This document shows, one piece after another, positions 3,034 to 52,935 of a DNA stretch of 64,000 nucleotides. The stretch comes from an uncultured Gammaproteobacteria bacterium (GTDB taxonomy: Bacteria; Patescibacteriota; Patescibacteriia; Buchananbacterales; UBA6539), in NCBI GenBank assembly GCA_964540635.1, contig CAZINP010000001.1, positions 93,364-157,363 of the forward strand. Reading direction: 5' to 3'. How positions within the stretch are numbered: the stretch's first letter is position 1; every line of letters begins with the position of its first letter. Position numbers and translations under genes: made by a program. The notes under the pieces were generated by a model. It saw only the letters and a program-made list of their open reading frames with translations. It was not told the origin of the DNA and searched no databases.

Positions 3034-4320
3034 ATGAAAATTGAAGTAAAATCCCTGCCCCGAGCTCAAGCTGAAATCGTGGTGGAACTAAGCCTAGAAG
3101 AATATCAACCTCACTTAGAACAAGCGGCAATTAGAATTTCCGAGCAAATTAAAATTCCCGGCTTTCGCCCGGGTAAAGCCGGTTTGGATATTGTCAAAGC
3201 CAAAGTCGGCGAAAAGGAAATCTGGACCGAAGCTTTTGAAGGCGCGGTCAAAAAAACCTTGTTTGCCGCTTTGCTAGAGAAAAAAATCGATTCAGTCGGC
3301 CAGCCGGAAATTGACATAGTCAAATTGGAACCGGGCCAGCCCGTTATCTACAAAGCCATTGTTAATTTGTTTCCGGAAATAAAACTGGCTGACTACAAAA
3401 ATTTAAGCGTCACCAAAAAACCGATTGAAATCAAAGAAGAAAAGGTTGAGCAAACGCTTAAAGACTTGCAAAAAATGCGCGCCAAAGAAGTTTTGGTGGA
3501 GCGCCCGGCAAAAAAAGGCGATAAAGCCGAAATTAATTTTGCCGCCTTTATGGACAAGGTGCCAATTGAAAACGGCCAACACCAAAAATACCCGATTGTC
3601 ATTGGCGACGGCCAATTCATTCCCGGCTTTGAAGATAATTTAGTCGGCATGAAAAAAGATGAAGAAAAAACTTTCCCCCTAAAATTTCCGGAAAATTATC
3701 CGCAAAAGAATTTAAGCGGCCGCGAAGTGGAATTCAAAGTTAAAATGCTTGCCGTCTACGAAAGAGAATTGCCGGAAATCAACGACGAATTTGCCGCCGG
3801 TTTTGGCCAGTTTAAAAATTTAGCCGAAGCCAAAGAAAAAATCAGAGATAACTTAAAACACGAAGCCGAACACGAAGCGCATCATCAGCTAGAAGAATCA
3901 ATTATTGATTTGCTGATTGAAAAAAGCGAATTTTCCGATGTGCCGGATTTGCTGGTCAACTCTGAAGCCAAAAAAATGATGGAAGAACTGGAACAAAACG
4001 TAATGATGCAAGGCATGCCGTTTGATCAATATTTGGAAGGGTTGAAAAAGACCAAAGACGAAATGCTTTTGGAATTTGCCCCGCAAGCCTTAAAGCGCGT
4101 CAAAGGCGCTTTGGTTATGCGTCAGGTGGCTACGGCCGAAAACGTTCAAGCAACCGACGAGGAAATCAAGGCTGAAATTGAACGCATGTTAGCCTACTAC
4201 GGCAATGATGCGGAAATGGCCAAGAACTTCCAAACACCCAGCTACAAAGAATATGTTAAAAACATTCTGGCTTCCAGAAAAACCATGGCTAAACTGGAAG
4301 AAATAATGGTTAAAGAATAA
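3034..4320 (+). CDS. tig: Trigger factor
   Basis: FRPGKAG ribosome-binding signature and an FKBP-like PPIase segment (PGFEDNLVGMKKDE). Confidence 0.9.
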   Translation: MKIEVKSLPRAQAEIVVELSLEEYQPHLEQAAIRISEQIKIPGFRPGKAGLDIVKAKVGEKEIWTEAFEGAVKKTLFAALLEKKIDSVGQPEIDIVKLEPGQPVIYKAIVNLFPEIKLADYKNLSVTKKPIEIKEEKVEQTLKDLQKMRAKEVLVERPAKKGDKAEINFAAFMDKVPIENGQHQKYPIVIGDGQFIPGFEDNLVGMKKDEEKTFPLKFPENYPQKNLSGREVEFKVKMLAVYERELPEINDEFAAGFGQFKNLAEAKEKIRDNLKHEAEHEAHHQLEESIIDLLIEKSEFSDVPDLLVNSEAKKMMEELEQNVMMQGMPFDQYLEGLKKTKDEMLLEFAPQALKRVKGALVMRQVATAENVQATDEEIKAEIERMLAYYGNDAEMAKNFQTPSYKEYVKNILASRKTMAKLEEIMVKE

Positions 4321-4410
4321 AAAACTCAAATAGCAGACCGCCCCGAGTCTTCGGGGCGGTTTTGTATTAAAAGCGTTATTTTGATAGAATTAAGGCGGGA
4401 TATAATACCA
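4279..4410. repeat. Direct repeat copy 1 (tig 3' end, terminator and downstream sequence)
   Basis: About 92% identical to 7088-7218, including compensatory changes in the terminator loop. Confidence 0.85.
4337..4367 (+). terminator. Intrinsic terminator after tig
   Basis: accgccccga / tcggggcggt stem followed by a T tract. Confidence 0.7.
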
Positions 4411-4479
4411 ATATATTAACAATAATTAGGAATTCAATATAAAAAGTGTGTTGATTTTATTAAATAACTCAATAAAACT

Positions 4480-5127
4480 ATGAAAAAAACTGTTCTAATC
4501 GCTCTGCTTGGTTTTAGTTTAACTTTGATTGGTTGTGTTCAACAAACTCCGGCAGAAAACCAAGACATAAGTCAGCCAACACTAAATGTTAATCAAAGCA
4601 CAAATCAACCGGCTGTAAATCTTAATCAGGGTGCTAACACCAACCAACCAACCGCAAATGTGAATCAAAATGTAAATACTAACACCAATAAACCAGTTGA
4701 TGCTTATGCAGATTGGCGAACTTACACTCACCCGTTCTATGGCTGGAAAATTAAATATCCAAAAGATTGGCAGTTTAAAGAATTTAATCAAAGTATTGCT
4801 TTTGCTCCACAAAATATCTCTTTGGAGCAAGAGTGGACTTCGGGCGCTATTGTATGGATAGTCTACCAAAATCCTGATCAACTAAGCTTGGAAGAATTTT
4901 TTAATGGCACGAATCAACCAAACTACTTCAATGACGCCGCAAATGGAATAGCAAACATTACTGTCGATGGGGTTTTGTCGAAAAAATTTAACGGCGTACC
5001 CGGCATGGTAGCATATACTATTTCTACAATTCCAAAAGGTGCAGTAATTGTTGAGCTTAGGGATAATGGAGAAAAACATAAAACTGATGGTATTTATGAT
5101 ATGATGCTTCAAAGTATAGATTTCTAA
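4480..5127 (+). CDS. Lipoprotein with an N/Q-rich low-complexity region
   Basis: Signal peptide and lipobox LTLIGC, followed by NQ-rich repeats (NVNQSTNQPAVNLNQGANTNQP...). Confidence 0.6.
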   Translation: MKKTVLIALLGFSLTLIGCVQQTPAENQDISQPTLNVNQSTNQPAVNLNQGANTNQPTANVNQNVNTNTNKPVDAYADWRTYTHPFYGWKIKYPKDWQFKEFNQSIAFAPQNISLEQEWTSGAIVWIVYQNPDQLSLEEFFNGTNQPNYFNDAANGIANITVDGVLSKKFNGVPGMVAYTISTIPKGAVIVELRDNGEKHKTDGIYDMMLQSIDF

Positions 5128-5305
5128 GTAATAAAAATAAATACAACGGCATGTAACGCGGTTTTGGCTAAAACAGGCAAAGACCGAATCACTAAAACCC
5201 GACGCTATGTGTAATACATTTTGGAACACTAGGAATACGAATTTACTCTTTTCAGTCCATAAATTAAAGCGATTAGAACTTTCAATAAACTCTAATTAAA
5301 AAACT

Positions 5306-7054
5306 ATGGCATATGAAAAAATAAGGCCAAAATTTGGCAAAAAATTATTAGGACTAACTTTATTTGTATTGGTACTAATTGGTATGGGGGGAGGAACTGT
5401 CTATGCGTCAACCAGCGCTTTACCGGGCGATCTACTTTATCCAATAAAAGTAAACTTTACCGAGGAATTGGAGGCAGCCACTAAACTATCCGATCAAGCA
5501 AAAGCCGAATGGGCAATTGAAAGAATCAATAGAAGGCTGAACGAAATAGATCAGATACTTTTAGTATTGGATGATGTTGACCCAAAAATCATTCAATCAA
5601 TTCAGACAAATGTGGAAAAAAGCGGTTCAAACGCCATAATAGCCGCCCAATCCTTAGACTCTGAATCTGTTTCAAAGATTTTATCCAAATTGCAAACAGC
5701 AACCGAATCATACAGTACCACCTTAGGTTCTATCCCCGAAAATACAACTGACGAAGAAATTGGAACTGCCTTAAACACAATTCTTGAAAATGTCCAGGAC
5801 GTAGAAAAAGAAACGCAAAAAATCGCTTTAAGTTTTTTCGTGGGACAAAATTTTTTTCCGGATGACAAAAACACACAACCTAAAAATAATCAAAATATTG
5901 GGAAAATAAATATTATTAGTCCCAAAATCGGAACCCAATTAGTTTCCGGGGTAGCCACAACCATTGCTTGGGAGCCTGTAGAAAAGGCCAGATCATACGA
6001 AGTGACTGTTACTCATCCGGGAGGTGAAGTAATCGGCCTCATTTTTGGTCAGATTCGCAGAACATCGGATGCTTCATATCAAATGGAAACGAGCATTCTC
6101 TGGCCCGCTGACTATTATCACGGACCTGCGCCGGAACTTAAAATAAATACTCTTGCGCCAGGTTACTATAAAATCAAAATAAGGGCCGAGGATTTTGATG
6201 GGAATGTATATATTGGAGAGTCAGAAAACTTTTCCATTGTAGCGCCCGAAAGCGACCGAGGAATACTGGCCGTGGAAATAATAAATCAAAAAGATAACCC
6301 AATCAATGAAAGCAAAGTCAAAATTGAATCGCAGTCAAATCAACAAAATTACGAGGCGACCGCCGATTCGAATGGCTTAGCTGTCATCAATCATATGCAA
6401 CCGGGCATATATAATGTTGAAGTGATTCCACCGAACTCATATTACAGCGCCAGATTCTCAGTTTATATTCAAGCGGGAAAAACCGCCCATCGAATTGTTC
6501 GCCTGGGCAGTAAAACCGAACCATTATCACAAGAATATGAAAATAAAGATGATTATGTTTCACCCACGATAAAAGTAAACGTGGAGGACGTATTGCCAAG
6601 CTCTATCTCGGCTAAAGAAAACTCCGGAAAATCCATCCTATTTGCACGCGCAAGTTTGACGCCGGATGATTCTATTGCATTTAATCGATTAAAACTTGGT
6701 TGTGCCGGCGACAGTCGCGCCTTCAGCGGTGCAACACTTACTACAAGCAACGGCATTTCCAAAAATATCCAAATGCGCCCAACATACGGCGGATTTGAAT
6801 TGGAAGTTGCCGTAAAAGATATCGATTTCAGTATTTTAAAAGATGAAACAACTACGATTTCGCTTTTCTTGAATGTTCGTGACTTAGACCAAGCCATTGC
6901 ATCAGGCGCACAATATCCAAAAAAAATCTCATGCGGTTTACAAGAGATTACTTTTGTAAGTCAGCGAACAGGTCGTCCAATATCACAAAAATATTTTGAC
7001 ATTAATGTAATTACAGCAATACGGGCACTAAAAACTACTCTGACAAAAGAATAA
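5306..7054 (+). CDS. N-terminally membrane-anchored secreted protein, hypothetical
   Basis: Single N-terminal TM helix, then a PGDLLYPIK motif region. Long ORF with uniform coding bias. Confidence 0.55.
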   Translation: MAYEKIRPKFGKKLLGLTLFVLVLIGMGGGTVYASTSALPGDLLYPIKVNFTEELEAATKLSDQAKAEWAIERINRRLNEIDQILLVLDDVDPKIIQSIQTNVEKSGSNAIIAAQSLDSESVSKILSKLQTATESYSTTLGSIPENTTDEEIGTALNTILENVQDVEKETQKIALSFFVGQNFFPDDKNTQPKNNQNIGKINIISPKIGTQLVSGVATTIAWEPVEKARSYEVTVTHPGGEVIGLIFGQIRRTSDASYQMETSILWPADYYHGPAPELKINTLAPGYYKIKIRAEDFDGNVYIGESENFSIVAPESDRGILAVEIINQKDNPINESKVKIESQSNQQNYEATADSNGLAVINHMQPGIYNVEVIPPNSYYSARFSVYIQAGKTAHRIVRLGSKTEPLSQEYENKDDYVSPTIKVNVEDVLPSSISAKENSGKSILFARASLTPDDSIAFNRLKLGCAGDSRAFSGATLTTSNGISKNIQMRPTYGGFELEVAVKDIDFSILKDETTTISLFLNVRDLDQAIASGAQYPKKISCGLQEITFVSQRTGRPISQKYFDINVITAIRALKTTLTKE

Positions 7055-7087
7055 TTCAACCATAGATTTTAATGATTAGCCTTCCAC

Positions 7088-7218
7088 AAAACCATGGCCA
7101 AAATCGAAGAAATAATGGTTAAAGAATAAAAACCTCAAATAGCAAACCGCCCCGAAGATTCGGGGCGGTTTTGTATTAAAAGCGGTATTTTGATAGAATT
7201 AAGGCGGGATATAATGAT
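7088..7218. repeat. Direct repeat copy 2 (orphan duplicate of the tig 3' end and terminator)
   Basis: Encodes a KTMAKIEEIMVKE* remnant followed by the same hairpin. Confidence 0.85.
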
Positions 7219-7308
7219 ATTATGTGCTCAATAAATTTTAATTATTTTCTCTAAAAATAGGCAAAATAATTGCCTGTTCGCATAAAAGTAGTTAAGTGAA
7301 ATTGAATT

Positions 7309-7743
7309 TTGGTTTATACTTCAAGCCGAGTCTTATTCAATAACAAAAAGCGTATGAAAATTTTTGCACAATTTGTTTCGAGTCTTGTGGGCGGCATATT
7401 GTTGGGCATCGTTGGTTTAGCTATTGGTGCTACAATTGGCGGCAATTTCGGCTTTCCAGAATTTGGAGGTAACGCCGGTTATGAATCTGGCGGTGTATTT
7501 TTTGCAATTGTTGGGATCTCACTTGGTAGCTTGCTCGGAATTATGGCAGTAAAAAAAATGCAAAAAGAGCAACACAAGTATACGGTCGCCTCAATTGCCG
7601 CCACCATTATGATTGTCATCGATGTTCTCTTGTTTGATTACAATATGCCGCCAGTTATTGCACTCACAATACTTTTGATGCCACCAATAGTATTAACAGT
7701 AATAACAAATTGGCAAAAATTTTCCAAAACAAAAAACTCATAA
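7309..7743 (+). CDS. Gly-rich small membrane protein
   Basis: Hydrophobic, glycine-rich helices. Confidence 0.45.
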   Translation: MVYTSSRVLFNNKKRMKIFAQFVSSLVGGILLGIVGLAIGATIGGNFGFPEFGGNAGYESGGVFFAIVGISLGSLLGIMAVKKMQKEQHKYTVASIAATIMIVIDVLLFDYNMPPVIALTILLMPPIVLTVITNWQKFSKTKNS

Positions 7744-7772
7744 CCAGAACCAAAATTCAACATCACTTAACA

Positions 7773-7874
7773 CGGCATAAGCGGCTACACTCCCTTTGGT
7801 CGTTTCGCCCATATTTGGCGCTGGTGTAGCACTCCGTGCTAAAATTGTACCAGCGCCAAACATCGTTTATGCCG
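7773..7874. repeat. Palindromic structured element A (nested stems)
   Basis: Outer stem cggcataa/ttatgccg, inner stem ggcgctggt/accagcgcc, central hairpin tagcac-tcc-gtgcta. Confidence 0.6.
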
Positions 7875-7908
7875 GGACGTTAGTAAAAATACTAGCAATT
7901 TTATAAAC

Positions 7909-9339
7909 ATGAAATTCTCTGAATTATTTAACGTAAAACGGAATCGTAATGATGACTGGTTTGATCCCATATTGGAATATGACACCAAACTTTTCATTGA
8001 TCCTTTTATAATATATAAAAAAGGATCAGGAATTTTTCAAGGTGCACATAAAAAAATTATTAATTTTTTCAATGAATCTTTAAAGGTTGTTGCGAAAGCT
8101 GACACTGACACTAAAAATTTATTTTACAAAAAATCGAAATCAATATTAGTCTTTCCCGAGGTTGAAGAATTATGCTTGGGTTATACAGTCGCAGGAACCA
8201 GTGGCGCCGGCTCAGGTCTAGAATTTGCTGAAATTATGATAGAGGCAATAAAGACTGCGCTAGCTAGGGGGGTTCAAAATATTCAGCACCTTGAAGAATT
8301 AGAAATTCTAAATACTGGTATTGGCGCCGATCGCATAAGCGATATCACAGCAAATATTTTAAAAAAAGAACTGATTGCTTATACTCAAAATATTTGCAAA
8401 AAATACAGCATACCAACAGCGCAAATCAAAATTAGAAATTCTGATTTCGATTTTAATAATCAAAGGTGGCTTTCTGAATCTATTAATCTACCGATTAACC
8501 CCAAAAATTCTAAAGCAATACTACTGGTACCTCAAAATTTTTTAGATGAACTTCCAGAAATCAACTCATCTAATTTCTGGGATTATTTATGCAACTACGA
8601 GAACAAAAGACTGAGAAACGATTTTAATTTTGACATATCGCAAAAAGTTGATAAAAAAACTATCGTGGAAATTGCGAGAAATCATCCCGATCTTCTTAAA
8701 AAGTATATTGATCGTGAAGAAAGCCATGGAAAAGCGACTCCATACAACTTTAAACAAGATTATAAAAATTTGATAAAATGGCACGATCGTGGCCAAATTT
8801 TTGTCAATAATAATCCCATACAATTAAAATCGCCAAATACAAACTCAGAATTTGATGAAGTGATCAAAAAAATTACTAATGCCTACAAAAATTTTGTTGA
8901 AAACCAAGGTGGCAATGAACTTCTTTGGAATGATAATGGTACTAAGCGAAATGAAAGTGCTGCTCAAAGAGCCTTTGCTGGTATAGCCATTCCTTATTGC
9001 CAAATTAATAATATAGACGTATCCAAGGAGGCAAATTTTGGTCGAGGCCCAGTAGATTTTAAATTTTCTACTGGCTACCATGCTAGAAAACTTATCGAAG
9101 TTAAGAAAGCTAGTACTGCCAGTAGATTAATTGAAAAAATTAAAAATCAGCTACCAACCTATCTAAAGGCAGAAGATGTCAAGAAAGGTACTTACTTGAT
9201 AATCAAATACTCAAGAAATGATGAAAAAATAATTGATAAAATAAAAAAAGAGATCAATAATCTGAATAAAAATTCTAATTTTGACATTGATTATCAAGTA
9301 GTTAGTGCAGAAAAATTCCCTAGTGCATCACGATTATAA
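7909..9339 (+). CDS. Hypothetical protein with a C-terminal PD-(D/E)xK-like nuclease motif
   Basis: GRGPVDFKF...KLIEVKK has D...ExK spacing typical of restriction-endonuclease-fold proteins. The N-terminal 350 aa are unrecognised. Confidence 0.45.
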   Translation: MKFSELFNVKRNRNDDWFDPILEYDTKLFIDPFIIYKKGSGIFQGAHKKIINFFNESLKVVAKADTDTKNLFYKKSKSILVFPEVEELCLGYTVAGTSGAGSGLEFAEIMIEAIKTALARGVQNIQHLEELEILNTGIGADRISDITANILKKELIAYTQNICKKYSIPTAQIKIRNSDFDFNNQRWLSESINLPINPKNSKAILLVPQNFLDELPEINSSNFWDYLCNYENKRLRNDFNFDISQKVDKKTIVEIARNHPDLLKKYIDREESHGKATPYNFKQDYKNLIKWHDRGQIFVNNNPIQLKSPNTNSEFDEVIKKITNAYKNFVENQGGNELLWNDNGTKRNESAAQRAFAGIAIPYCQINNIDVSKEANFGRGPVDFKFSTGYHARKLIEVKKASTASRLIEKIKNQLPTYLKAEDVKKGTYLIIKYSRNDEKIIDKIKKEINNLNKNSNFDIDYQVVSAEKFPSASRL

Positions 9340-9363
9340 AAATTGCTAGTACTTCTACTAACA

Positions 9364-9451
9364 CCTGCTATACGAACATTGCTTGTCCCCGTTCGTGATG
9401 GACTCCGTCCAATTTTATCACGACGGTGACGGCGCAACGTCGTATAGCAGG
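9364..9451. repeat. Palindromic structured element B
   Basis: cctgctatacga / tcgtatagcagg 12-bp stem with inner stems ccgttcgtgat / atcacgacgg and gacg-gcgcaa-cgtc. Confidence 0.55.
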
Positions 9452-9481
9452 GTAACGTTGTATGCAATAAAATTAATTTTT

Positions 9482-9970
9482 ATGGAAATAAATTCAAAAA
9501 ATATTTTTAAAGTTTTTACAATTATAATATCAATTGTTGCTTTAGTTTTTTCATTTCTTGCGTGGCAGGTTAATAATAAACAATTTTTGTCTTCAGCAAG
9601 ACCATATGTTATCGCTGAAAATTTTGGTACGCTTACTAACAACTACTCATATATACCTCAACCAAGTGCTCTAGCTATAATTGTTCTTAATGTACCTGCA
9701 AAAATAATACGCGAAGAAGTAATTTATTATTCAGACAAAAATATTGTTTATAATAGCACTAATACAGATGAAGTATTAATACCTGGAAATCAGATGCAAT
9801 ATAAAAGGGAATGCCCAGAAGAGATACTAAATAAGCCAAACTTGACAAGATTTGTAAAAATTGATTATAAATGGTTGTCTGGATCAAATGAAAAATATTT
9901 TTTTGAAGCAAGTTGGAAGTTTAACACACAGGATAAAAGATGGGAATTAGAATACCAAAAAGCAAATTAA
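9482..9970 (+). CDS. Membrane-anchored hypothetical protein
   Basis: Start placed at MEINSKNIFKVF, which precedes a TM helix. The annotated upstream extension overlaps element B. Confidence 0.45.
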   Translation: MEINSKNIFKVFTIIISIVALVFSFLAWQVNNKQFLSSARPYVIAENFGTLTNNYSYIPQPSALAIIVLNVPAKIIREEVIYYSDKNIVYNSTNTDEVLIPGNQMQYKRECPEEILNKPNLTRFVKIDYKWLSGSNEKYFFEASWKFNTQDKRWELEYQKAN

Positions 9971-10026
9971 TTTTACTGCATACAACACGGTTTTAGCGAA
10001 ATTAAAACTTCGCCAAAACCGGGAAC

Positions 10027-11074
10027 GTTAGGGGAAATATGACTTGCTTCCTGAAAAAAAGACCACGCCCCTTGTCGAAGCGTGGTAAGAAACCAGTTTG
10101 GCATTGTTTGGCGGCGAAGGCCGAGAATCAGCTCTTGAATAGCTCCATTGCCACATCGGCGCCGGGAACATGACCTAAGCGAGCCATGAATTCCCAAAGC
10201 AAGAGAGCAACGGCAATGTATGCTACTGCTGAGCCAGCGATTCCTACGCCATTCATAGCCGGATGTTCTGTACGCCTCTTATACTCGACGATGAGTTCGA
10301 GGCTGCCAACAATAAGCAGGATGAAAAACAGAACAAGACCAACTTTGAAGGCAAGAAAACCAGAGGCGATCACCCCGATAGTAAGAAACACCAGACCAAT
10401 GCCGGAATTCACGGAGTAGGCGATGGATTTCATGATTCTGCCGCCATCTAAGGGATTAATCGGCAGAAGGTTGAAAAGATTGACCATTGCCATCCAGCTG
10501 GCTGCAGCGGCGAAAAGCGGATTTTCGGTCAAGACATAGATAAGGCCGGTAAACAGCACCAGGGCAAAGCCCCAGAGCGGCCCCATGATCGCGATAACCA
10601 CTTCCGCCCCTCGTGAAGGAAATTCCGCATCCGCAACAGCGGCGGCACCGAGGAATGGCAAAAAGTAGATACCTTTCGTCTTGATTCCGTATCGCCTCAT
10701 CGCCCAAATGTGCCCACTCTCGTGGATGAACAGCATAACCATGATCATCACAGCAAACTGCCAGCTCAGAAGATAGGCATAGGATGCCATAGAGGTAACC
10801 GCAAGGCCTACCTTACCTACCTTTAATCCCTTAACCACCTTGGCAAGAACCGCTATGATCTTCGGTCCCACTTTGATGATAAGGGCAATCATCCCTGCGC
10901 CAAACTTTCTCATTCTATATTCTCCTTCCAAGGTTCAATATCATGATCCTCTCATGACAGAGGTCTCCACACTGGAAAACACTTTATGTTAGCATAATTA
11001 TTGACATATGTCAACCGCAAAAACCACAACTAACTATTTACATAACTAGTAACGCAAGTCATACTTCCCCTAAC
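10027..11074. mobile_element. High-GC cassette bounded by 21-bp inverted repeats (20/21 match)
   Basis: gttaggggaaatatgacttgc at 10027-10047 against gcaagtcatacttcccctaac at 11054-11074. Interior GC is roughly 52%, against roughly 35-40% in the flanks. Confidence 0.6.
10128..10931 (-). CDS. Site-2-protease family (M50) zinc metalloprotease
   Basis: HESGH (HExxH) within a TM helix plus NLLPINPLDGGR (LDG motif). Own promoter TTGACA-17-TAACAT, whose -35 lies inside the palindrome TTGACATATGTCAA. SD ggaaggag. Own terminator at 10060-10092. Confidence 0.75.
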   Translation of the reverse strand: MEGEYRMRKFGAGMIALIIKVGPKIIAVLAKVVKGLKVGKVGLAVTSMASYAYLLSWQFAVMIMVMLFIHESGHIWAMRRYGIKTKGIYFLPFLGAAAVADAEFPSRGAEVVIAIMGPLWGFALVLFTGLIYVLTENPLFAAAASWMAMVNLFNLLPINPLDGGRIMKSIAYSVNSGIGLVFLTIGVIASGFLAFKVGLVLFFILLIVGSLELIVEYKRRTEHPAMNGVGIAGSAVAYIAVALLLWEFMARLGHVPGADVAMELFKS

Positions 11075-11120
11075 ACTTTTTATCTGGCTCACTCACTAAA
11101 TAAAATTACTTATAAACACT

Positions 11121-11495
11121 ATGGGCAGTTACATCGAAATAAACGACACACTTCAAATTACTAAAAAACAAGGGTTTCCTTCCGAGCTAGATTTTAAAAA
11201 ACATAGAAATCACCCGCTTACTGCGAATAACTTTAAAGGTAAAATTTTTAAATTTAGAAACAAAGATAAAATCAGAATCTACCACGCTCCGCCAGTCAGA
11301 AATTTTCTTGTTCAAAATATCGACAATAAATGGTTATACTGGGGCTTGATCCATATACTTGAAGTCACCCACAATCAAGTTAAAAAAACTACTTCTGGAA
11401 AATTTAAAATTGTTTATATTTACACTCCCGAAGAAATGAAGCAAGCCCATAAACTGATTGATAGAAATAAGAAAACGGATTATTTTAATAATTAA
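11121..11495 (+). CDS. Hypothetical protein
   Basis: ORF only. Confidence 0.35.
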   Translation: MGSYIEINDTLQITKKQGFPSELDFKKHRNHPLTANNFKGKIFKFRNKDKIRIYHAPPVRNFLVQNIDNKWLYWGLIHILEVTHNQVKKTTSGKFKIVYIYTPEEMKQAHKLIDRNKKTDYFNN

Positions 11496-11548
11496 TTTTA
11501 TTCAACCGCGCATCCGAATTAACTACTCCACACATTATTTAAATTTAC

Positions 11549-12184
11549 ATGGCAACACCCATAGTTCACGTCGTTTTGACGGATAAAATATTCAATAAAT
11601 TTTTTATTAACAGAAATAAAAAAGATTTTTTTATTGGCACATCTTTTCCCGACATAAGATACTTAAGAATTATCAAAAGAGAAAAAACGCATTTTGAAAA
11701 TGTCAAAATGAAAGATATTGAAAAAGAAAATGATTTTACGGCCGGATTAAAATTTCATTCTATTTTAGATCAAATCAGAGAAGATTTTATTGTTAAAAAC
11801 AATGCCTATGATTTATTTCCCAACTCAAAACTTTCCACTCTTGCCTTAAAGCTGGCAGAGGATAGGATCTTATACAATAATACTCAAGACTGGCAAGAAT
11901 ATATTGATTATTTAAATGAGGTTTTAGTGGATGAAATTAATTTTGGGCTGAAGGCAGATGATATAAAAAAATGGCACGAATTGCTTCAACAACTGTTTTC
12001 TCATTCACCAAATAGACAATCAATCCAAGATTTTGCCTCTGAAATCTTCTTTTCAAATCATGATATTAACGAGCTTGATAAAATGGCGACTCAACTTAGT
12101 GCCAATAAAAAACTGATTAAAATTATAAAAAATTTGTACGCCAACTTTGAAACTTTAACCCAAAATTATATAAAAAATAATTAA
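11549..12184 (+). CDS. Hypothetical protein
   Basis: ORF only. Confidence 0.35.
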   Translation: MATPIVHVVLTDKIFNKFFINRNKKDFFIGTSFPDIRYLRIIKREKTHFENVKMKDIEKENDFTAGLKFHSILDQIREDFIVKNNAYDLFPNSKLSTLALKLAEDRILYNNTQDWQEYIDYLNEVLVDEINFGLKADDIKKWHELLQQLFSHSPNRQSIQDFASEIFFSNHDINELDKMATQLSANKKLIKIIKNLYANFETLTQNYIKNN

Positions 12185-12197
12185 TAATTTTATTATT

Positions 12198-12494
12198 ATG
12201 AAAAAATCAATCGAATCTATGTCCCAAGAGGGTAAAAAACCTGAATCGTTGAATGTCCCAAGCGAAAAGTTAAGCTTAGGAAGATCGGGAAATTTAAGAG
12301 ATGCAATTGAGCAACTCAAGGGCAAAGAGCCGGGAACATACATATCATATGTATCAGAAAAGTTTAATATTCAAGGTGAAGTAGAACAAGCATGCGCTGA
12401 GCAAGGATTAGAAAATATTACCGTCGAGAATCTTCCTTACTGGGGCGGGGAACGGATGTACAGAATAACGGTTCAAAAATCAGAGAAAGAATAA
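12198..12494 (+). CDS. Hypothetical protein
   Basis: ORF only. Confidence 0.3.
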   Translation: MKKSIESMSQEGKKPESLNVPSEKLSLGRSGNLRDAIEQLKGKEPGTYISYVSEKFNIQGEVEQACAEQGLENITVENLPYWGGERMYRITVQKSEKE

Positions 12495-12541
12495 CCAATA
12501 ATTATTCGGACAAAACAAAAAAATAATAAACTCAAAAAATT

Positions 12542-13237
12542 ATGAGAAAATTATTAATTTTGACAATTGCAATTTTAAGCGTTGCGACTGTTGGATGTTC
12601 TAATATAAATTATTCAAAAAAGAACGTTATAAAAACAGGCGGTGAGGAATACGTTGTTGACTCAAGCGATCTTTACAACGTAGATCCGATTGAAACAAAC
12701 TCAAATCTAGAAAAACTCAACGAAAATGAGCAAAATTGGCTAATCCACATGCGCGAAGAAGAAAAGTTGGCGCGAGACGTATACGAAACCCTTGGCAAAA
12801 AATGGCAAATGAATATTTTTATAAACATTGCCAAATCAGAACAAACACACACCGACTCAATCAAAACACTTCTTGAGCGCTATAATATACAAGACCCGGT
12901 AAAAAATGACGCCATCGGAGAATTTAATCTTGCAGAAATAAAACAACTCTATAATGACTTAATCCAAAAAGGAAATAATAGCCTTGTTGACGCACTTGTG
13001 GTAGGTGCGACAATAGAAGATTTGGATATCTTTGATTTAGATGTTGCCATTAAAGAATCAAGCAAAACAGATATTAATACCGTGTATGCAAACCTGCAAA
13101 AAGGGTCACGAAATCATATGCGTGCGTTTATAAAACAGATAAATAATCAAGGAAGCACTTATTCTCCCTCATATATATCCGAAGAAACATACAACGGCAT
13201 AATATCTTCATCTCAAGAAAAAGGAAGGGTGCAATAG
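12542..13237 (+). CDS. Ferritin-like (DUF2202-type) lipoprotein
   Basis: Lipobox VGCSN. EEEKLARDVYE...SEQTHTD diiron-like ferritin-fold motifs. Confidence 0.55.
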   Translation: MRKLLILTIAILSVATVGCSNINYSKKNVIKTGGEEYVVDSSDLYNVDPIETNSNLEKLNENEQNWLIHMREEEKLARDVYETLGKKWQMNIFINIAKSEQTHTDSIKTLLERYNIQDPVKNDAIGEFNLAEIKQLYNDLIQKGNNSLVDALVVGATIEDLDIFDLDVAIKESSKTDINTVYANLQKGSRNHMRAFIKQINNQGSTYSPSYISEETYNGIISSSQEKGRVQ

Positions 13238-13251
13238 GTTTTAAAAAATAT

Positions 13252-13677
13252 ATGGCTTACTACAATAAAATTGGATTATTGGTTTTAAATGAAGACAAAA
13301 CAAAATTTTTAGTTTGTGAACCAGGATCACTTTACAAAGAAAAAAGCGTAACGCAATATTTAATGCCCGGCGGACAATTTCAAGAAGAAACAATAGAAGA
13401 ATGCTTGAAGGCGGAAATAAAAGAAGAGCTTGATTGCGATGTTGATCTTAACAGCATTGAATTTATTGATGACTATGTTGATGTTGCTGCGTCAAATCCC
13501 AAAAGAGATGTTTTAATTAAATTATACAAGGGCTCTTTGGTCGGCACACCAACCCCGTCCACAGAAATTGGGGCAATCCACTGGCTGAGCAAAGATGATA
13601 TAACAAATGAAAAAGTATCGCCAATAATCAGAAATAAAATAATCCCGGATTTAATCGCCAAAAAAATATTGAGATAA
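13252..13677 (+). CDS. NUDIX hydrolase
   Basis: Nudix box GGQFQEETIEECLKAEIKEELD. Confidence 0.7.
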   Translation: MAYYNKIGLLVLNEDKTKFLVCEPGSLYKEKSVTQYLMPGGQFQEETIEECLKAEIKEELDCDVDLNSIEFIDDYVDVAASNPKRDVLIKLYKGSLVGTPTPSTEIGAIHWLSKDDITNEKVSPIIRNKIIPDLIAKKILR

Positions 13678-13785
13678 AATTAATACTCGCAAGGTTAAAC
13701 CCTTGCCAATATAAACATCAAGTGTTAATCTGAAACCGGCAATTACGCCGAAAAAACGAAAAGCAACTTAATGGAGGATAATCTC

Positions 13786-14037
13786 GTGCCTATTCAAAGT
13801 ATGGATGAGGTCGCCATTCAAGACGGAAAAGGTGGCCGGGCAGTTGTCCGGCCGGGCAACAAAGTGTGGTTGTCGCCGGAGGGAAACAACGAATCCATGC
13901 GCCAGTTTTGTCACGGCCAAGAGCCATACACAATCAAGTGGATTGGCAAATGGCCGTGCGGCGGAGTAAATCTTTATCTAGAGGGGCGAGGCGAGGGAGC
14001 TTCAAGCAGAAACTTTCAGAGCTCCCCGAGAGAATAA
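13786..14037 (+). CDS. Small high-GC hypothetical protein (GTG start)
   Basis: SD ggagg 7 nt before the GTG. GC-rich coding run with its own terminator at 14057-14090. Confidence 0.35.
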   Translation: MPIQSMDEVAIQDGKGGRAVVRPGNKVWLSPEGNNESMRQFCHGQEPYTIKWIGKWPCGGVNLYLEGRGEGASSRNFQSSPRE

Positions 14038-14109
14038 ATCTCTTAAAACGGATGTCACATTGGGAGGCAAAATTTGTCTCCCTATTTTTTAAATATTGAT
14101 TTTTATTTT

Positions 14110-14175
14110 CCTTGTTAACCACTATTGACAATTAGGTTAACCTATGTTAACCTTAATATATAGTACGGTTAACAA
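14110..14175 (+). promoter_or_regulatory. Operator-like array of four GTTAAC(C) half-palindromes around a TTGACA -35
   Basis: GTTAACC at 14114, 14136 and 14146; GTTAAC at 14168. Located directly upstream of the antitoxin gene. Confidence 0.5.
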
Positions 14176-14180
14176 AAAAT

Positions 14181-14456
14181 ATGGAAAAAATCACCAAAAA
14201 CTACATATCCGTAGCTGAATTAGCTAAATTACTTGGCGTTAGCCGAATTGCCGTTTTTAAACGCATTAAAAAAGGCCAAATCCCGGCTGAAAAAATTGGT
14301 CGTGCTTATGCCATTAGCGCCGAGGTGGCCAATGAAATTCTTGCTGACGGAAAAGATCAAGAATTAAGTGCGGAGAAGAAAAAAATAATCCAAGAGGCAG
14401 TCACCAAGGTCGTCAAAGATTACGGTGAAACCTTAAAGTTGTTAGGCAAAGAATAA
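14181..14456 (+). CDS. HTH (excisionase/AlpA-like) DNA-binding antitoxin
   Basis: ISVAELAKLLGVSRIAVFKRIKKGQIP helix-turn-helix. Only a 3-nt gap to the toxin gene. Confidence 0.6.
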   Translation: MEKITKNYISVAELAKLLGVSRIAVFKRIKKGQIPAEKIGRAYAISAEVANEILADGKDQELSAEKKKIIQEAVTKVVKDYGETLKLLGKE

Positions 14457-14459
14457 TTT

Positions 14460-14882
14460 ATGTTTACCCAAAGACTGACAATTTCTGAGGTTAAGGACGT
14501 GGCGCATCGTTTGGCTCAGCAAACCTTGGGTTGGAGCGAACCAATTCCGGACTTTGCCACTCGTTTTGACAACGTCCTGGAGAGTTGTCTTGATCAGCCA
14601 TTCCAAACCTTTGCCAGAAAATCGCTTTATCCGGGATTTATTAAAAAGGCGGCCACGCTTTTTTATCTGATGATTAAAAATCATCCGTTTAAAAACGGCA
14701 ACAAAAGAATTGCCATGACCACTTTGTTTTATTTTTTGTATAAAAATAAAAAATGGCTGAGAGTTGATAATCACGAATTGTACAACTTTGCCAAATGGGT
14801 GGCTGAAAGCAATCCGAAATTAAAAAACGCAACCGTTGATGCGATTGAAATTTTTTTAAAAGAATATTTAACAGAAATATAA
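14460..14882 (+). CDS. doc: Doc (death-on-curing) / Fic-family toxin
   Basis: Doc signature HPFKNGNKR (HxFx[DN]GNKR). Confidence 0.7.
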   Translation: MFTQRLTISEVKDVAHRLAQQTLGWSEPIPDFATRFDNVLESCLDQPFQTFARKSLYPGFIKKAATLFYLMIKNHPFKNGNKRIAMTTLFYFLYKNKKWLRVDNHELYNFAKWVAESNPKLKNATVDAIEIFLKEYLTEI

Positions 14883-14894
14883 ATTATTACAATT

Positions 14895-15338
14895 ATGAAA
14901 TGGTATTTTGCCTCCAGAACTCGTCATCAAAATTCAATTGATAATATTGTTGACTTTCTCAAAACCCAAAACGAAAGCATTGTTTTTGAGTGGTCAAAAC
15001 TGGGCGTGCTCACCCCTTTTAAAGAAAATTTTGAGCAATCTGCGCGTATTGCCGAGCAAATCAGCTCAGCTCTCAAAGAAGCTGAAATTTTTGTTTTAAT
15101 TTCTGATGAAGCGGGAACGGATATGTTTATTGAACTGGGAATTGCCCTGGGCAATTGGCTCCAAAACAAAAAAGTTAAAATATACGCCATTGGAAAATTT
15201 AACGATCGATCGCTAATGCATTTTCATCCGGCCATTAGACAGGTTGAAAAATTAAGTGATGTTTTTAAAATTGAAAATCCTAATTTACTCGGCCAACCCG
15301 GAGCCGAAGTTATTATTAATTTTGACCCTCACGCTTAA
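14895..15338 (+). CDS. Nucleoside 2-deoxyribosyltransferase-like protein
   Basis: DEAGTDMFIELGIALG matches the NDT D-x-G-T-x-x-E-x-G-x-A active-site region. Confidence 0.45.
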   Translation: MKWYFASRTRHQNSIDNIVDFLKTQNESIVFEWSKLGVLTPFKENFEQSARIAEQISSALKEAEIFVLISDEAGTDMFIELGIALGNWLQNKKVKIYAIGKFNDRSLMHFHPAIRQVEKLSDVFKIENPNLLGQPGAEVIINFDPHA

Positions 15339-15392
15339 TCATAAAAAAAGCACGTCCGTTGACGTGCGAGGTGCAATTTTGGAGGGCAAGAC

Positions 15393-15605
15393 TTACTTTC
15401 CCCAGACGACTTTGATTCCAATGGAGACGATGATAAAGGCGGTGGAGAACAGGAGGTTGTAAACATCTAAAACTTCGGCTGTTCCACCGTTGAAATTCTT
15501 AATCATCATTATAAGCCAGTTGAATGTCACCAAAAAAATCCCAACAACAAAAACAAAGCACGACGCAAATTTCATAGCCATTTCCTTTCGCCAATCAATC
15601 CACAT
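15393..15605 (-). CDS. Small hydrophobic protein (uncertain)
   Basis: 70-aa ORF with two hydrophobic helices. Confidence 0.25.
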   Translation of the reverse strand: MWIDWRKEMAMKFASCFVFVVGIFLVTFNWLIMMIKNFNGGTAEVLDVYNLLFSTAFIIVSIGIKVVWGK

Positions 15606-15704
15606 CCATCGGCAATCCTATTATCCAAATAGGATTATTTTATTCAAAGAACGAATTTATTTTATATTTAGACGATCATAAAGTCAAGAAATTTAAAAAA
15701 GGCT

Positions 15705-15866
15705 CCAACCAGCAAGACGGCGGGGAGGAATGGTGGGGGTCTTGCTGGCTGAAGCGAAAGTGGGGGTTGATGGAGGGGAGGAACTAGCCGTCGCATAGGG
15801 AACTTGGCCGGATGGCCATTGCTGTTTTATACGGCAGACGGCCGGGGAAGGGTCATCAACCCCCAC
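15705..15866. ncRNA. GC-rich nested-stem element of unknown family; strand undetermined
   Basis: 10-bp stem ccagcaagac/gtcttgctgg and 13-bp stem gtgggggttgatg/catcaacccccac enclosing inner stems gccgtc/gacggc and tggcc/ggcca. Roughly 60% GC in an AT-rich spacer. Confidence 0.4.
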
Positions 15867-15979
15867 GGGAAAACACAAAGAGCGTAAATTAATCATACCA
15901 AATTATTCCAATTTGTAAATATGCTTGAAAAATCGGTTTTTTTTGCTATAATAACCTTGTTTTAAACTAATCGTTTTCT

Positions 15980-17539
15980 ATGAAAAATAAATTCCTAGTT
16001 TCAGCAATCTTGCTTACATTAATTTTACCGCAAACAGCGGCCGCCGAATTAATAAAAAGCCAAAATGGTAACACCGTCTATTATTTAGACAATTTTAATA
16101 ATCGCCACCCTTTTCCCAACTTAACCACTTTTCAAAGTTGGTTTGGAAATGATTTTTCAAGCACAAAAATCGTCTCCGAAGAAGCTTTAGCCAAATTGCC
16201 TTTGGGAAAAAATATAACCATTCGTCCGGGTACATTTCTGATAAAAGCCCAAACCGCACCCACGGTTTATGCCGTTGAGCAGGGCGGGGTCATCAGGCCG
16301 ATTTCAAGCGAAATTGCGGCCGAAGAAGTTTTTGGGCAAAACTGGAATAAAAAAATTGTTGATGTGCCCGATGTTTTTTTTGGCAACTACACCCTAGGCA
16401 AAACCATTACCAGCGACAACGATATTCCGGACAATGTTTTATACTATAATACCAACAAGAAAAAATATTATTTTAAATCAATGGGAATTGTGCGACCGTT
16501 TTCTTCTGAAAGCGCTGTTTTGGCCAATCATCTTAAGCTAAGCGATGCTATTGCCAAGCCGTATGACTTTTCCGAAAGAGAAAAACCAATAACCGGGTTG
16601 GATAAAAGCGTTTTTAATCCGGCCGAATCAGCTTATGTTTCAAGAGTTGATTGTGAAAATAAAAAATTAAAAGCCGCCGTTATCGTGGTGGCCGCTCAAG
16701 AAACCAAGGGCGAGGAATTAAGTAAAGTTGAATTGATAAAAAATAAAATCAGCGAAACCTATTCTTGGGCCACCAGCGGACTTTCCGAAATCGATCTGAA
16801 TTATCCCACTTCTGTAATTTATGACAACGGTTATATTTTATCTACAAACGAAGACGGAACAACCGAAATCAAAAGTGAGTTATTAAACACTTTCTATGAG
16901 ACCAACCCGGATGATTTTGATATTATTTTCATTTTTACCAATTTCAAAACCCCGGAAGAAAACACCAACGAAATTGCGCATTACGCCACCATCACCAACC
17001 GTCAAACCGGCACCGGTCGCTATCAAATTGAATCGGCTCACGTTTACGGTTCAGCCGGCAAATTAAAAGGCGCGATTGTTATGGGCAACATCAATAAATA
17101 CGATTTTGCCACTGAAAAAGGCAAAAACCAAGTTTTAGACATAATCTTACATGAAATCGGCCACCAGTGGTTGGCTTATATCAACTACTACGACGGCACC
17201 GAGACGGCAAATTACGGCTTGTTGCGAGACGACAAAATTCACTGGAGCTACTATGCCGGTTTTATCTCTCCCTTGGGCGGTTCCGGTTGGATTGATAATG
17301 GGGACGGCACTTTTACTTCCGCCCTGGCTCAATTGCCCGAAGGATCATTAAGAAAATACAGCACGCTTGATTTATATTTAATGGGCCTTATTCCGGCTCA
17401 AGTTGTTGGCCCCGTTTTTTACGTTCAACCAACTATTCCAAATCAAGTCGGAAATATCATTGACGGCAAAAAAGTTATGGTAAATATTGATCAAATTATC
17501 AGAGGCAACGGGCCAATCCAATGCAATTTAAGTAAATAA
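15980..17539 (+). CDS. Secreted putative zinc metallopeptidase (HExxH)
   Basis: Signal peptide; LHEIGHQWL motif. Promoter TTGAAA...TGcTATAAT upstream. Confidence 0.45.
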   Translation: MKNKFLVSAILLTLILPQTAAAELIKSQNGNTVYYLDNFNNRHPFPNLTTFQSWFGNDFSSTKIVSEEALAKLPLGKNITIRPGTFLIKAQTAPTVYAVEQGGVIRPISSEIAAEEVFGQNWNKKIVDVPDVFFGNYTLGKTITSDNDIPDNVLYYNTNKKKYYFKSMGIVRPFSSESAVLANHLKLSDAIAKPYDFSEREKPITGLDKSVFNPAESAYVSRVDCENKKLKAAVIVVAAQETKGEELSKVELIKNKISETYSWATSGLSEIDLNYPTSVIYDNGYILSTNEDGTTEIKSELLNTFYETNPDDFDIIFIFTNFKTPEENTNEIAHYATITNRQTGTGRYQIESAHVYGSAGKLKGAIVMGNINKYDFATEKGKNQVLDIILHEIGHQWLAYINYYDGTETANYGLLRDDKIHWSYYAGFISPLGGSGWIDNGDGTFTSALAQLPEGSLRKYSTLDLYLMGLIPAQVVGPVFYVQPTIPNQVGNIIDGKKVMVNIDQIIRGNGPIQCNLSK

Positions 17540-41167: not shown

Positions 41168-41851
41168 ATGAAGGTTTCCGTGGTAATCCCGGTCTATAAC
41201 GAACAAGAATATATTTTGAAAACAATTGAAGCCGTTAGGGCTCTGGATTTTGGTGGTTGGGAAAAAGAGATTATTGTGGTTGATGACGGTTCCAGTGATC
41301 GTACGCCGGATATATTAAAATCAGAGTCAGGGATAAAGATTATTTTGAGTGACAAAAATCATGGCAAGGGTCATGCGCTTGCCCTTGGCTTTAATCAAGC
41401 AACCGGCGATATTATTGCCATTCAAGATGCGGATCTGGAATATTGTCCTTCAAACTTAATCGGTTTAATCAACCAAATTGTTAACAATAAAGCTCAGGTG
41501 GTTTTTGGAAGCCGGATGAAGGGCAATAATCCAATAGGTCATTGGCGATATTATTTGGGCAATCTTTTTGTTTCTTTTTTGCTTAATTTATTTTTTAATG
41601 CCCGTCTGTCGGATGTTGAAACCGGGCATAAAGTTTTTCTCAGGTCAGTAATAAGTGATATTGATTTTAAGGAGAAGGGATTCGGTTTTGAAATAGAGTT
41701 TACGGCAAGGGTTTTAAGAAAAAAAATTTTAATAACCGAGATGCCAATTATCTATTCTCCTCGCAAATTTTGCCAAGGCAAAAAGATTAAATGGCTTGAC
41801 GGCCTGGAGGCAATTTGGTTGATAATAAAGTATCGTTTTATCAGGTTATGA
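41168..41851 (+). CDS. GT2 glycosyltransferase
   Basis: VIPVYNE ... VVDDGSSDRT ... QDADLEY. Confidence 0.7.
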   Translation: MKVSVVIPVYNEQEYILKTIEAVRALDFGGWEKEIIVVDDGSSDRTPDILKSESGIKIILSDKNHGKGHALALGFNQATGDIIAIQDADLEYCPSNLIGLINQIVNNKAQVVFGSRMKGNNPIGHWRYYLGNLFVSFLLNLFFNARLSDVETGHKVFLRSVISDIDFKEKGFGFEIEFTARVLRKKILITEMPIIYSPRKFCQGKKIKWLDGLEAIWLIIKYRFIRL

Positions 41852-43512: not shown

Positions 43513-43514
43513 TT

Positions 43515-45176: not shown

Positions 45177-45184
45177 AAATTTTT

Positions 45185-49302: not shown

Positions 49303-49430
49303 AGGCTTTTATTTATATTTAATTTACTTTTTTATTATATCAAATTTTATATAGATTGACAAATAAGCTTAAATGTGGTAATATTTAATGTTTCTTGGTG
49401 TGAAAATAAGGCAAAATAGGAGAATCTGCC

Positions 49431-49805: not shown

Positions 49806-49922
49806 TCAACACCTTCCACCGGTTTTACCCGAGGCGGAGCGCTCTTAGCGCCCCGCCTCTTTCTTTTGCTGGAATAAAAAAAGACGGGACGCTAGGTCCC
49901 GTCTCGGATAATTTTATAATGT

Positions 49923-50354: not shown

Positions 50355-50356
50355 AT

Positions 50357-50779: not shown

Positions 50780-50792
50780 AAGTATAAGAATA

Positions 50793-51236: not shown

Positions 51237-51237
51237 A

Positions 51238-51630: not shown

Positions 51631-51638
51631 AATTAAAT

Positions 51639-52456: not shown

Positions 52457-52459
52457 ATA

Positions 52460-52852: not shown

Positions 52853-52935
52853 GTCCGTAGTGTGTTAAAGGGGAGACCCCAGAAAAAACCGGCAGCCTCC
52901 CCTTGTTTTCGTATGTGAGTTAAGAAATTCTGAAA

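Follow-up and report, generated by a model that had tools for sequence, protein, structure and literature searches.

Is a gene for an intramembrane protease that stands between short inverted repeats a mobile element in its own right, or part of a larger system? The question is raised by a 1048-bp unit at positions 10027-11074 of a 64,000-nucleotide (nt) stretch of contig CAZINP010000001.1, which is called the window here. The unit carries a gene of the M50 (site-2 protease) family. A first-pass annotation had described it both as a self-contained mobile element bounded by inverted repeats and as an integron-like gene cassette, and our analysis favors the latter description. The M50 unit is one of four tandem cassettes with GTT and AAC ends, hairpin sites lie between the cassettes, and a related array has a recombinase beside it. 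A cluster of attC sites without an integrase is known as a CALIN (PMC9024848, PMC5027507). The M50 unit is likely a cassette of an integron-type, CALIN-like array whose recombinase was either lost or never present in cis. The inverted repeat would then not be a transposon end, and cassettes of class 1 integrons show the same pairing of the 5′ end with the inverse core.

Four tandem cassettes and the sites between them

The 21-nt inverted repeat of the M50 unit was confirmed, with GTTAGGGGAAATATGACTTGC at 10027-10047 and its reverse complement at 11054-11074 matching at 20 of 21 positions. Neither arm had further copies in the 64-kb window at three or fewer mismatches, and 100 dinucleotide shuffles gave zero matches. 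The earlier annotation treated the unit as solitary, but three neighboring units bear the same kind of repeat. A long-range search for inverted repeats found four consecutive one-gene units with arms of 21-24 nt, each with an exact GTT start and AAC end. The window held 10 inverted-repeat diagonals compared to 0-4 in shuffles, and only these four were GTT/AAC-anchored and consecutive. The array is laid out as follows, where L106, L107, and L108 are metagenome contigs described in the next section and ORF is an open reading frame:

7259..7290, plus strand: array-start flank (attI-like), AGGCAAAATAATTGCCTGTTCGCATAAAAGTA, conserved beside the first cassette in L106 and L108 and resembling the 3′ half of a spacer
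7291..7771, plus strand: cassette C1, 24-nt arms at 7291-7314 and 7748-7771, ORF 7354-7743 for a small glycine-rich membrane protein
7879..9362, plus strand: cassette C2, arms at 7879-7906 and 9334-9362, ORF 7909-9339 (DUF8370/DUF8371)
9457..9986, plus strand: cassette C3, 23-nt arms at 9457-9479 and 9964-9986, ORF 9482-9970
10027..11074, plus frame: cassette C4, the M50 unit (1048 bp), polarity as C1-C3, with the inner gene on the opposite strand
10027..10047, plus strand: C4 left arm, GTTAGGGGAAATATGACTTGC, the exact sequence also in L106 and L108
11054..11074, plus strand: C4 right arm, GCAAGTCATACTTCCCCTAAC, the exact sequence also in L107

All arm pairs in the window start with GTTR and end with YAAC. 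Arms of the same cassette pair in 78 of 84 cells, whereas arms of different cassettes do so at only 7-12 of 21 positions, and two or more types of Watson-Crick pair occur at 13 of the 21 positions. Therefore, the pairing of the arms is conserved and their sequence is not. Position 11 departs from this pairing in all four cassettes: on the plus strand, the left arm has A and the right arm has C (an A.C mismatch, which is a G.T wobble on the minus strand). Across 13 cassettes from three sources, the left arm had A in 13/13 and the right arm, read as its reverse complement, had G in 12/13. Since the M50 unit obeys this rule, it is a cassette of the same polarity with a reversed, self-expressed gene and not a flipped cassette. 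A fifth cassette at 11128-11505 was considered and rejected because its arms match at only 10 of 16 positions; it is kept as possibly decayed. The motif GGGWAACGTTR was not enriched in the window.

The cassettes differ in composition. Their GC content at third codon positions (GC3) was 0.35, 0.25, 0.18, and 0.57 for C1 to C4, which points to independent origins. As the first-pass annotation had stated, the M50 unit contrasts with its surroundings, at 48.4% GC compared to 27-38% for the neighboring units and 37.9% for the window, and the GC3 of 0.57 lies above the 0.18-0.46 of the 18 other genes tested. C1-C3 are compact and co-oriented, with a promoter upstream and stems that adjoin the start and stop codons. 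The M50 gene runs opposite to them and therefore has its own promoter and terminator:

10986..11014, minus strand: the M50 gene's own promoter, with the −35 element within the palindrome TTGACATATGTCAA
10128..10913, minus strand: M50/site-2-protease family gene, 261 amino acids (aa), assigned by motifs, Pfam, homologues, and a structure match
10062..10086, minus strand: intrinsic terminator of the M50 gene, a hairpin followed by a T-run
7190..7218, plus strand: sigma-70-like promoter TTGATA-17-AATGAT, with TATAAT one base upstream, in a duplicate of the tig 3′ end and facing C1, the putative promoter of the array

These signals of the M50 gene had all been proposed earlier and were found again. 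The promoter reads TTGACA-17-TAACAT with a TG extension (11014-10986), the palindrome around its −35 element, proposed as an operator in the first-pass annotation, is perfect, a Shine-Dalgarno sequence, GGAAGGAG, lies ahead of the ATG at 10913, and the terminator occupies 10086-10062. In a promoter scan over 4 kb, the M50 promoter scored 10/12, which was the joint top score and the best on the minus strand; two plus-strand sites within C2 likewise scored 10.

The stretches between the cassettes, referred to as spacers, form a family of their own:

7772..7878, plus strand: spacer S1, attC-like hairpin, 107 nt, single-stranded DNA fold z=−4.4, basal stem 12/12 paired
9363..9456, plus strand: spacer S2, attC-like hairpin, 94 nt, z=−6.5, basal stem 12/12 paired, its end CGTATAGCAGG recurring in L107
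9987..10026, plus strand: spacer S3, attC-like hairpin, 40 nt, z=−3.6, its minus-strand reading resembling a second terminator after the M50 gene
11075..11127, plus strand: spacer S4, shortened and poorly folding, its first 18 nt ACTTTTTATCTGGCTCAC identical to the spacer after the same-armed L106 cassette

Three well-folding sites (S1-S3) and one decayed site (S4) each follow a one-gene unit. The layout of S1-S3 is AAC, A, a stem of 11-13 bp, a variable tip, the returning stem, GG(A/T)AC, and GTT. Across 11 spacers of the family, 124 of 132 cells of the basal stem are paired and 9 of 12 positions covary. AAC/GTT triplets were found at 8/8 cassette ends in the window and at 18/18 ends in L106 and L107, and the purine/pyrimidine consensus RYYYAAC/GTTRRRY is conserved in part (in the window, at 10 of 12 Y positions). 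The known plan of attC is a hairpin of 57-141 bp with a variable tip, bounded by AAC/GTT as the sole conserved triplets and recombined through its bottom strand (PMC5027507). Including the 7-bp boxes, the sites in the window measure 54, 108, and 121 bp, and those in L106 measure 85-175 bp. The bottom strand was more stable than the top strand in 10/12 spacers. It was also more stable in 3/3 modelled circular junctions (right arm, spacer, and own left arm), each of which formed one long hairpin. On the bottom strand this hairpin is a continuous helix with a 3-4-nt bulge beside AAC. The loop of the site is one-sided, with 1 nt facing 4-5 nt, and the stem is free of extrahelical bases over its first 11-12 bp. 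An Rfam scan of 4000-16500 gave only sub-threshold matches, which lay on terminator hairpins, and no family matching the sites. A search with a custom "AAC-stem-GTT" pattern gave no more than the shuffled controls did and was abandoned. The count of n cassettes against n−1 sites was also dropped as a counter-argument since the spacer family turned out to include S4 and the start flank.

As a control, the same self-complementarity test was conducted on three class 1 arrays from plasmids, with 11 cassettes. The 5′ GTTAG was complementary to the cassette's own CTAAC over all 7 core positions in 10/11 cassettes. In 9/11, the pairing extended over 8-13 contiguous bp (aacA4 12, catB3 13, GES-24 13, catB8 12, dfrA39 11, aadA5 11); the exceptions were dfrA17, with 7 bp, and aadA1, which was interrupted (6/7). 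Since class 1 cassettes show the same pairing, a single gene enclosed by a GTT...AAC inverted repeat is the ordinary footprint of an integron cassette.

Related arrays and an adjacent recombinase

The exact 21-nt arm of C4 was found in three Joint Genome Institute (JGI) metagenome contigs (L106, L107, and L108), where about one chance match was expected. In all of them the context is similar, and the likeness to the window extends past the arm. At least eight cassettes follow one another in L106, with GTTR..YAAC arms of 20-24 nt and a conserved spacer family that reads ACGTTTTATACG ... CGTATAAAACGGTAAC in the orientation of the window. The arm type of C4 recurs together with the spacer start ACTTTTTATCTGGCTCAC, the 18 nt being identical in the window and L106. 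In the window these arms enclose the M50 gene, in the fourth cassette from the start. In L106 they enclose a small zinc-ribbon gene that has a promoter and a terminator of its own, in the eighth cassette from the start. In L108 the cassette is the first after the start flank. The same arms with other cargo and at other positions are what movable cassettes would look like.

A 275-aa tyrosine recombinase is encoded in L106, 110 nt beyond the last cassette, and is transcribed away from the array. It matches Pfam Phage_integrase (PF00589, E=6.8e-44) and a SAM-like N-terminal domain, and its motifs with the catalytic R, K, HxxR, H, and Y can be aligned to those of IntI1. Against the NCBIfam model NF040815 (XerA/integron integrase), it scored 243.8, above the cut-off of 220. 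The sequence between the recombinase gene and the first cassette is conserved at 7259-7290 of the window and in L108. As expected of an attI-type site, this start flank of L106 is similar to the 3′ half of a spacer. No recombinase was found at the array-start position in the window or in L108.

Two further observations concern L106 itself. Cassette 7 has an outer 10 nt, GTTGTGAGAC, as in cassette 5 and an inner 10 nt, TATGACTTGC, as in the M50 cassette, in both arms, and this modular join sits at the position-11 mismatch. Beyond the eight cassettes counted, 7778-8405 is a further probable cassette with mutated ends (CCTAAT for CCTAAC), followed by a complete 148-nt spacer whose first 18 nt equal the start of S4 in the window.

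Proposed mechanism and competing explanations

Integrons and CALINs (PMC9024848, PMC5027507) likewise consist of compact, tandem one-gene cassettes that are mostly co-oriented, include reversed cassettes with their own promoter, and vary in content between genomes. Their sites are also imperfect hairpins bounded by AAC/GTT that fold better on the bottom strand and are similar within an array, and the cassette 5′ end is also complementary to its own inverse core. The L106 array adds the likeness of a divergently transcribed tyrosine recombinase beside a conserved start site. Unlike the class 1 controls, with 8-13 bp, the cassettes in the window are self-complementary over 21-24 bp. Further differences from integrons are the fixed A/C mismatch at position 11, the sites with a one-sided unpaired region (1 vs 4-5 nt) and no extrahelical bases, the 275-aa recombinase of L106 without the IntI-specific insertion, a host that probably belongs to the Candidate Phyla Radiation (CPR), and the lack of an integrase among the scanned ORFs of the window. 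Integron cassette arrays are themselves well known, and this array looks like an undescribed variant of the integron in its site architecture and associated recombinase. These two features, the latter beside a related array, and the probable host group appear to be new. In the literature searched, there was no report of integrons in CPR bacteria.

A mechanism can be proposed in which recombination, the strand used, the cleavage point, and the expression pattern are all deduced from sequence. The spacer, made up of AAC, a covarying hairpin, a 4-5-nt unpaired tail, and GTT, would play the part of attC, and the 21-nt inverted repeat would be the pairing of the cassette 5′ end with its own inverse core. 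Once a cassette is circularized, its two arms would fold together with the following spacer into a single long hairpin. A tyrosine recombinase would excise or insert cassettes by acting on a folded strand, most probably the bottom one, at the point where AAC meets GTT. The spacer stem, the one-sided AAC/GTT bulge, and about the first 10 bp of the arm, as far as the fixed mismatch, would approximate the two-arm geometry of an Xer core, a layout that would suit a recombinase lacking the IntI domain and sites that have no extrahelical bases. The extended arms and their mismatch at position 11 may stabilize the folded circular cassette or mark strand polarity. Because no recombinase was found encoded in the window, the array here would be a stranded, CALIN-like remnant.

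A precedent of sorts exists in CTX-type phages, in which a folded single-stranded attP is recombined by XerCD. By analogy, an Xer-type enzyme could accept as substrate a hairpin resembling a core site with two arms and an unpaired center. Here, such a hairpin would combine the 12-bp stem of the spacer with the unpaired tail and with the part of the arm, about 10 bp long, that precedes the position-11 mismatch. Unlike CTX-type attP, the locus shows no phage and no identified dif site, and its units form cassette arrays instead of a single integration.

Several findings weigh against an integron-type array. S4 does not fold, and the sites lack canonical features of attC, namely the two-sided unpaired spacer of 5-6 nt and the extrahelical bases of the L-box. 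The 21-24-bp arms and the fixed position-11 mismatch are unexplained by the classical integron model. The recombinase of L106 scored 229.2 against the integron-integrase model TIGR02249, below the cut-off of 265, and is 36% identical to IntI1 with a 43-aa gap opposite the IntI-specific insertion. It stands beside the array in only 1/3 of the related contigs, and its adjacency could be a coincidence, involving an enzyme that passes a housekeeping-type XerA threshold. Neither the direct scan of window ORFs, which took in only part of those at 22-64 kb, nor the annotation of the collinear L089/L099 (window 1-30 kb) turned up a tyrosine recombinase. No circular or empty-junction molecule was observed. 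Also, a sister strain (L089) more likely lost the island that holds the array by microhomology deletion than by a cassette-level event.

Other explanations of the repeats were weighed against these data. The units could be non-autonomous elements with terminal inverted repeats that resemble mobile insertion cassettes (MICs) or miniature inverted-repeat transposable elements, were moved in trans, and came to lie side by side by chance. Such elements would account for the conservation of arm positions 1-4 and 10-12, one helical turn apart, for the dinucleotide AC on both sides of 3/4 units, and for the same arms in other genomes. We consider them unlikely: the arms of neighboring units differ and are still self-complementary, while one transposon family would share its ends. 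The 13/13 known units lie in same-polarity tandem arrays with a conserved hairpin family, and none is dispersed. The flanking AC belongs to the conserved ends of the spacers, bona fide integron cassettes share the signature, and no transposase was found in the scanned ORFs of the window or in L106. A single-gene cargo between inverted repeats had been called an undescribed class of element, but transposase-free passenger elements of this kind are known as MICs, in which passenger genes lie between inverted repeats of the insertion sequence (IS) type (PMC4337579). A single non-transposase gene between terminal repeats, with no mobility gene inside, is shared by MICs and the units studied here. 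The ends of MICs are those of the cognate IS and identical in all copies, and MICs are dispersed and flanked by target duplications. In contrast, the units in the window have cassette-specific ends, are arrayed, and have hairpin sites between them. Another known arrangement is that of the pdif modules of Acinetobacter plasmids, in which genes lie between inversely oriented Xer-type sites and modules follow in series; these sites share one 28-bp consensus, and neighboring modules share a single site. Unlike these modules, the cassettes in the window each have their own arm sequence and a separate hairpin spacer.

A role in RNA appears quite unlikely. In this case, the stems of 21-24 bp with a central mismatch would form in a polycistronic plus-strand transcript and be cut by a double-strand-specific RNase, which would free or stabilize single-gene mRNAs. 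The stem length and the mid-stem mismatch do resemble RNase III substrates, the C1-C3 stems adjoin start and stop codons, and these cassettes are downstream of a promoter. However, the M50 gene is on the other strand with its promoter inside the arms, and its mRNA therefore lacks the upstream arm. The recurrent mismatch is G.T when read on the minus strand but A.C on the plus strand, which favors pairing antisense to C1-C3. The mixed composition and the same arms with other cargo elsewhere imply that the arms travel as DNA, and a tyrosine recombinase adjoins the L106 array. It is very unlikely that the arms are crossover sites of an invertase and the units invertible segments, with the M50 unit in a flipped state. 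The repeats do flank whole genes, M50 genes often lie within 100-300 nt of contig ends, and a 77%-identical M50 homologue lies between 130-nt inverted repeats with serine recombinase genes near it (L095 and L096). Against inversion, all four frames, that of the M50 unit included, keep the left/right asymmetry at position 11, a gene that brings along its promoter and terminator would not be switched by flipping the unit, the arms have no internal dyad symmetry, no invertase was found among the scanned ORFs of the window, and the hairpin spacers are left unexplained. Finally, there is almost no probability that the M50 gene is native and its palindrome coincidental, the outcome that the first-pass annotation had named as its own refutation. 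The M50 subfamily is common in CPR genomes and often GC-richer than its surroundings, as a native gene would allow. This explanation is contradicted by the absence of repeat matches in 100 shuffles, by four consecutive anchored repeats, by the absence of the island from the sister strain, and by the same arm around other genes in other genomes.

A more tentative proposal builds on the integron-type array. The locus may represent a separate, undescribed branch of cassette capture, possibly near the ancestor of integrons, with an Xer-type recombinase without the I2 helix, long-stem sites, CPR-like hosts, and a cargo of a self-expressed M50 gene and a candidate defense gene. Its site is proposed to consist of the 12-bp spacer stem, the one-sided AAC/GTT bulge, and an arm of about 10 bp closed by the fixed mismatch. 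IntI is thought to derive from Xer-like recombinases by gain of the I2 helix, which enables it to read folded, single-stranded attC (PMC4792948, PMC7790495), and acquisition of the IntI-specific insertion region is held to have enabled single-strand attC recombination (PMC7790495). If true, an array served by an Xer-like enzyme without I2 would make the transition from Xer to IntI testable, and the system would be either a surviving intermediate or an independent solution. Very small, host-dependent genomes of the CPR type would then keep a platform for cassette exchange, its cargo in the window being an intramembrane protease and a likely defense or restriction protein. For annotation, GTT...AAC inverted repeats that enclose one gene should be taken for cassette boundaries and not for transposon ends.

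The M50 gene, its relatives, and the surrounding island

The product of the M50 gene was correctly assigned to the M50 proteases in the first-pass annotation from its HESGH and LDG motifs. The length of 267 aa given there did not hold, since the protein has 261 aa from its ATG and 267 counts from an upstream in-frame TTG. HESGH occupies residues 64-68 and NLLPINPLDGG residues 148-158, and the HExxH and NxxPxxxLDG residues are invariant in 32 homologues. Pfam Peptidase_M50 (PF02163) matched with E=1.3e-14 and 54.6 bits (cut-off 27.2), and the nearest solved structure was the M. jannaschii site-2 protease (3B4R, E=4.8e-10). This protease (MjS2P) and SpoIVFB (8VJL) have both motifs in common with the window protein, which is a short form of 261 aa in which Pfam detects the M50 domain alone.

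The subfamily gave 3371 matches. It is common in CPR genomes and patchy in its spread, being found in CPR groups, Acidobacteria, Planctomycetes, Hyphomicrobium, and one archaeon, and its genes often have somewhat higher GC than their surroundings. The nearest homologue, 78% identical, is from Candidatus Giovannonibacteria, and the likeness at the DNA level is limited to the coding region. This homologue, the outlying GC3, and the absence of the gene from a strain that is 98.5-99.2% identical support a foreign origin of the gene. No GTT..AAC bracket was found at the 34 loci scanned out of 80 species-representative loci of M50 homologues or at 9 metagenome loci, except for a weak 14-nt pair in Giovannonibacteria. 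The idea that the repeat is a property of the M50 gene itself was rejected on these grounds. In Candidatus Giovannonibacteria (L004 4679-6351), the M50 gene lies in a 1.6-kb island of 50-59% GC between flanks of about 42%, directly after a tRNA gene, and the island is flanked by the weak repeat GTTGGAAAAGTCAA / TTGACTTTTTCAAC.

Longer repeats were observed around other relatives. The 130-nt inverted repeats at the 77%-identical homologue are 98% complementary with a perfect 125-nt core and occur in three independent metagenome contigs (L095 4212-6012, L097, and L098 256-1670); a fourth contig with the gene, L096, is without them. L095 additionally has nested repeats of 100 nt and 61 nt. The region could be invertible or shuffling, or an assembly effect of such a region. 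M50 subfamily genes lie very often within 100-300 nt of a contig end (L005, L007, L010, L022, L090, L091, L093, L094, and L097), which suggests that repeated or variable sequence upstream of them breaks assemblies. In L014 (labeled Sericytochromatia, 31% GC), an M50 homologue lies between 51-nt inverted repeats (5-55 and 1779-1829) with a terminator-like hairpin, one arm being at the contig end, and a second segment lies between 38-nt repeats (5883-5920 and 7675-7712). The long repeats of the 77%-identical homologue and the 51-nt pair of L014 were set apart as a phenomenon different from the cassette arms.

Among the other cargo, the C3 protein had no homologue among 5.8 billion proteins. The C2 protein matches the PADLOC candidate defense protein PDC-M36A (E=1.8e-34), and its homologues elsewhere adjoin DNA methyltransferases, namely N6_N4_Mtase with a helicase in L086 and a Dam-type enzyme in L104. 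C2 has no methylase partner in the window, and its protein may be a restriction-type nuclease, judging by these matches. Homologues of the C2 protein in three other contigs showed no such arm repeats.

The window is a piece of bacterial chromosome, as seen by nusA, tig, argS, yidC, rnpA, dnaA, and dnaN. A phage origin was rejected on the basis of these chromosomal genes and because a megablast comparison of 9000-12500 with 50,697 phage records gave no match. Judging by the best M50 matches, which are from Giovannonibacteria, Colwellbacteria, and Parcubacteria, the host is probably a CPR/Patescibacteria organism. The array lies in a variable island:

7117..12507, no strand assigned: strain-variable 5.39-kb island holding the array, absent from L089, with an imperfect direct repeat of about 20 nt at its edges
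11128..12507, plus strand: rest of the island, ORFs 11121-11495, 11549-12184, and 12198-12494, with no clear cassette ends

L089, which comes from a different sample, matches the window collinearly over 22 kb at 98.5-99.2% identity and is without the array and three further small genes. This shows that the organism can do without the island and that the M50 gene does not belong to its core genes. The junction in L089 (11791-11812) falls in a microhomology of about 11 nt, GAAGAAATAAT / AAAAAAATAAT. L089 was rejected as an empty integration site since a duplicated tig 3′ region crosses the left junction in the window, and the continuation of this region across the left edge makes deletion in L089 the simpler explanation. 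The duplicate is about 140 bp (4268-4407 and 7076-7215, 91-94% identity) and comprises the tig 3′ end, a terminator hairpin, and a downstream promoter. Its two copies flank genes of 215 aa and 582 aa, and the array-start flank abuts the second copy. A metagenome search with the 582-aa flanking protein found nothing. In the rest of the island, only a weak bracketing repeat (11099-11116 and 11485-11502) was found and the ORFs had no family matches; they are possibly decayed cassettes.

Some features outside the island were also recorded. An HTH_17 antitoxin-like gene followed by a Fic/Doc gene at 14181-14882, likely a toxin-antitoxin pair, is found in both strains, close to the variable island but not within it. 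At 56694-56780, a tRNA-Ser (CGA) overlaps the start of a mechanically called ORF (56701-57381), and the start of this ORF is probably spurious. Judging by their translations, three tandem paralogues at 41815-46843 encode polytopic membrane proteins of about 550 aa, and about nine tandem paralogues at 48880-54230 encode small secreted or membrane proteins with a "GNEEKI..AK" motif.

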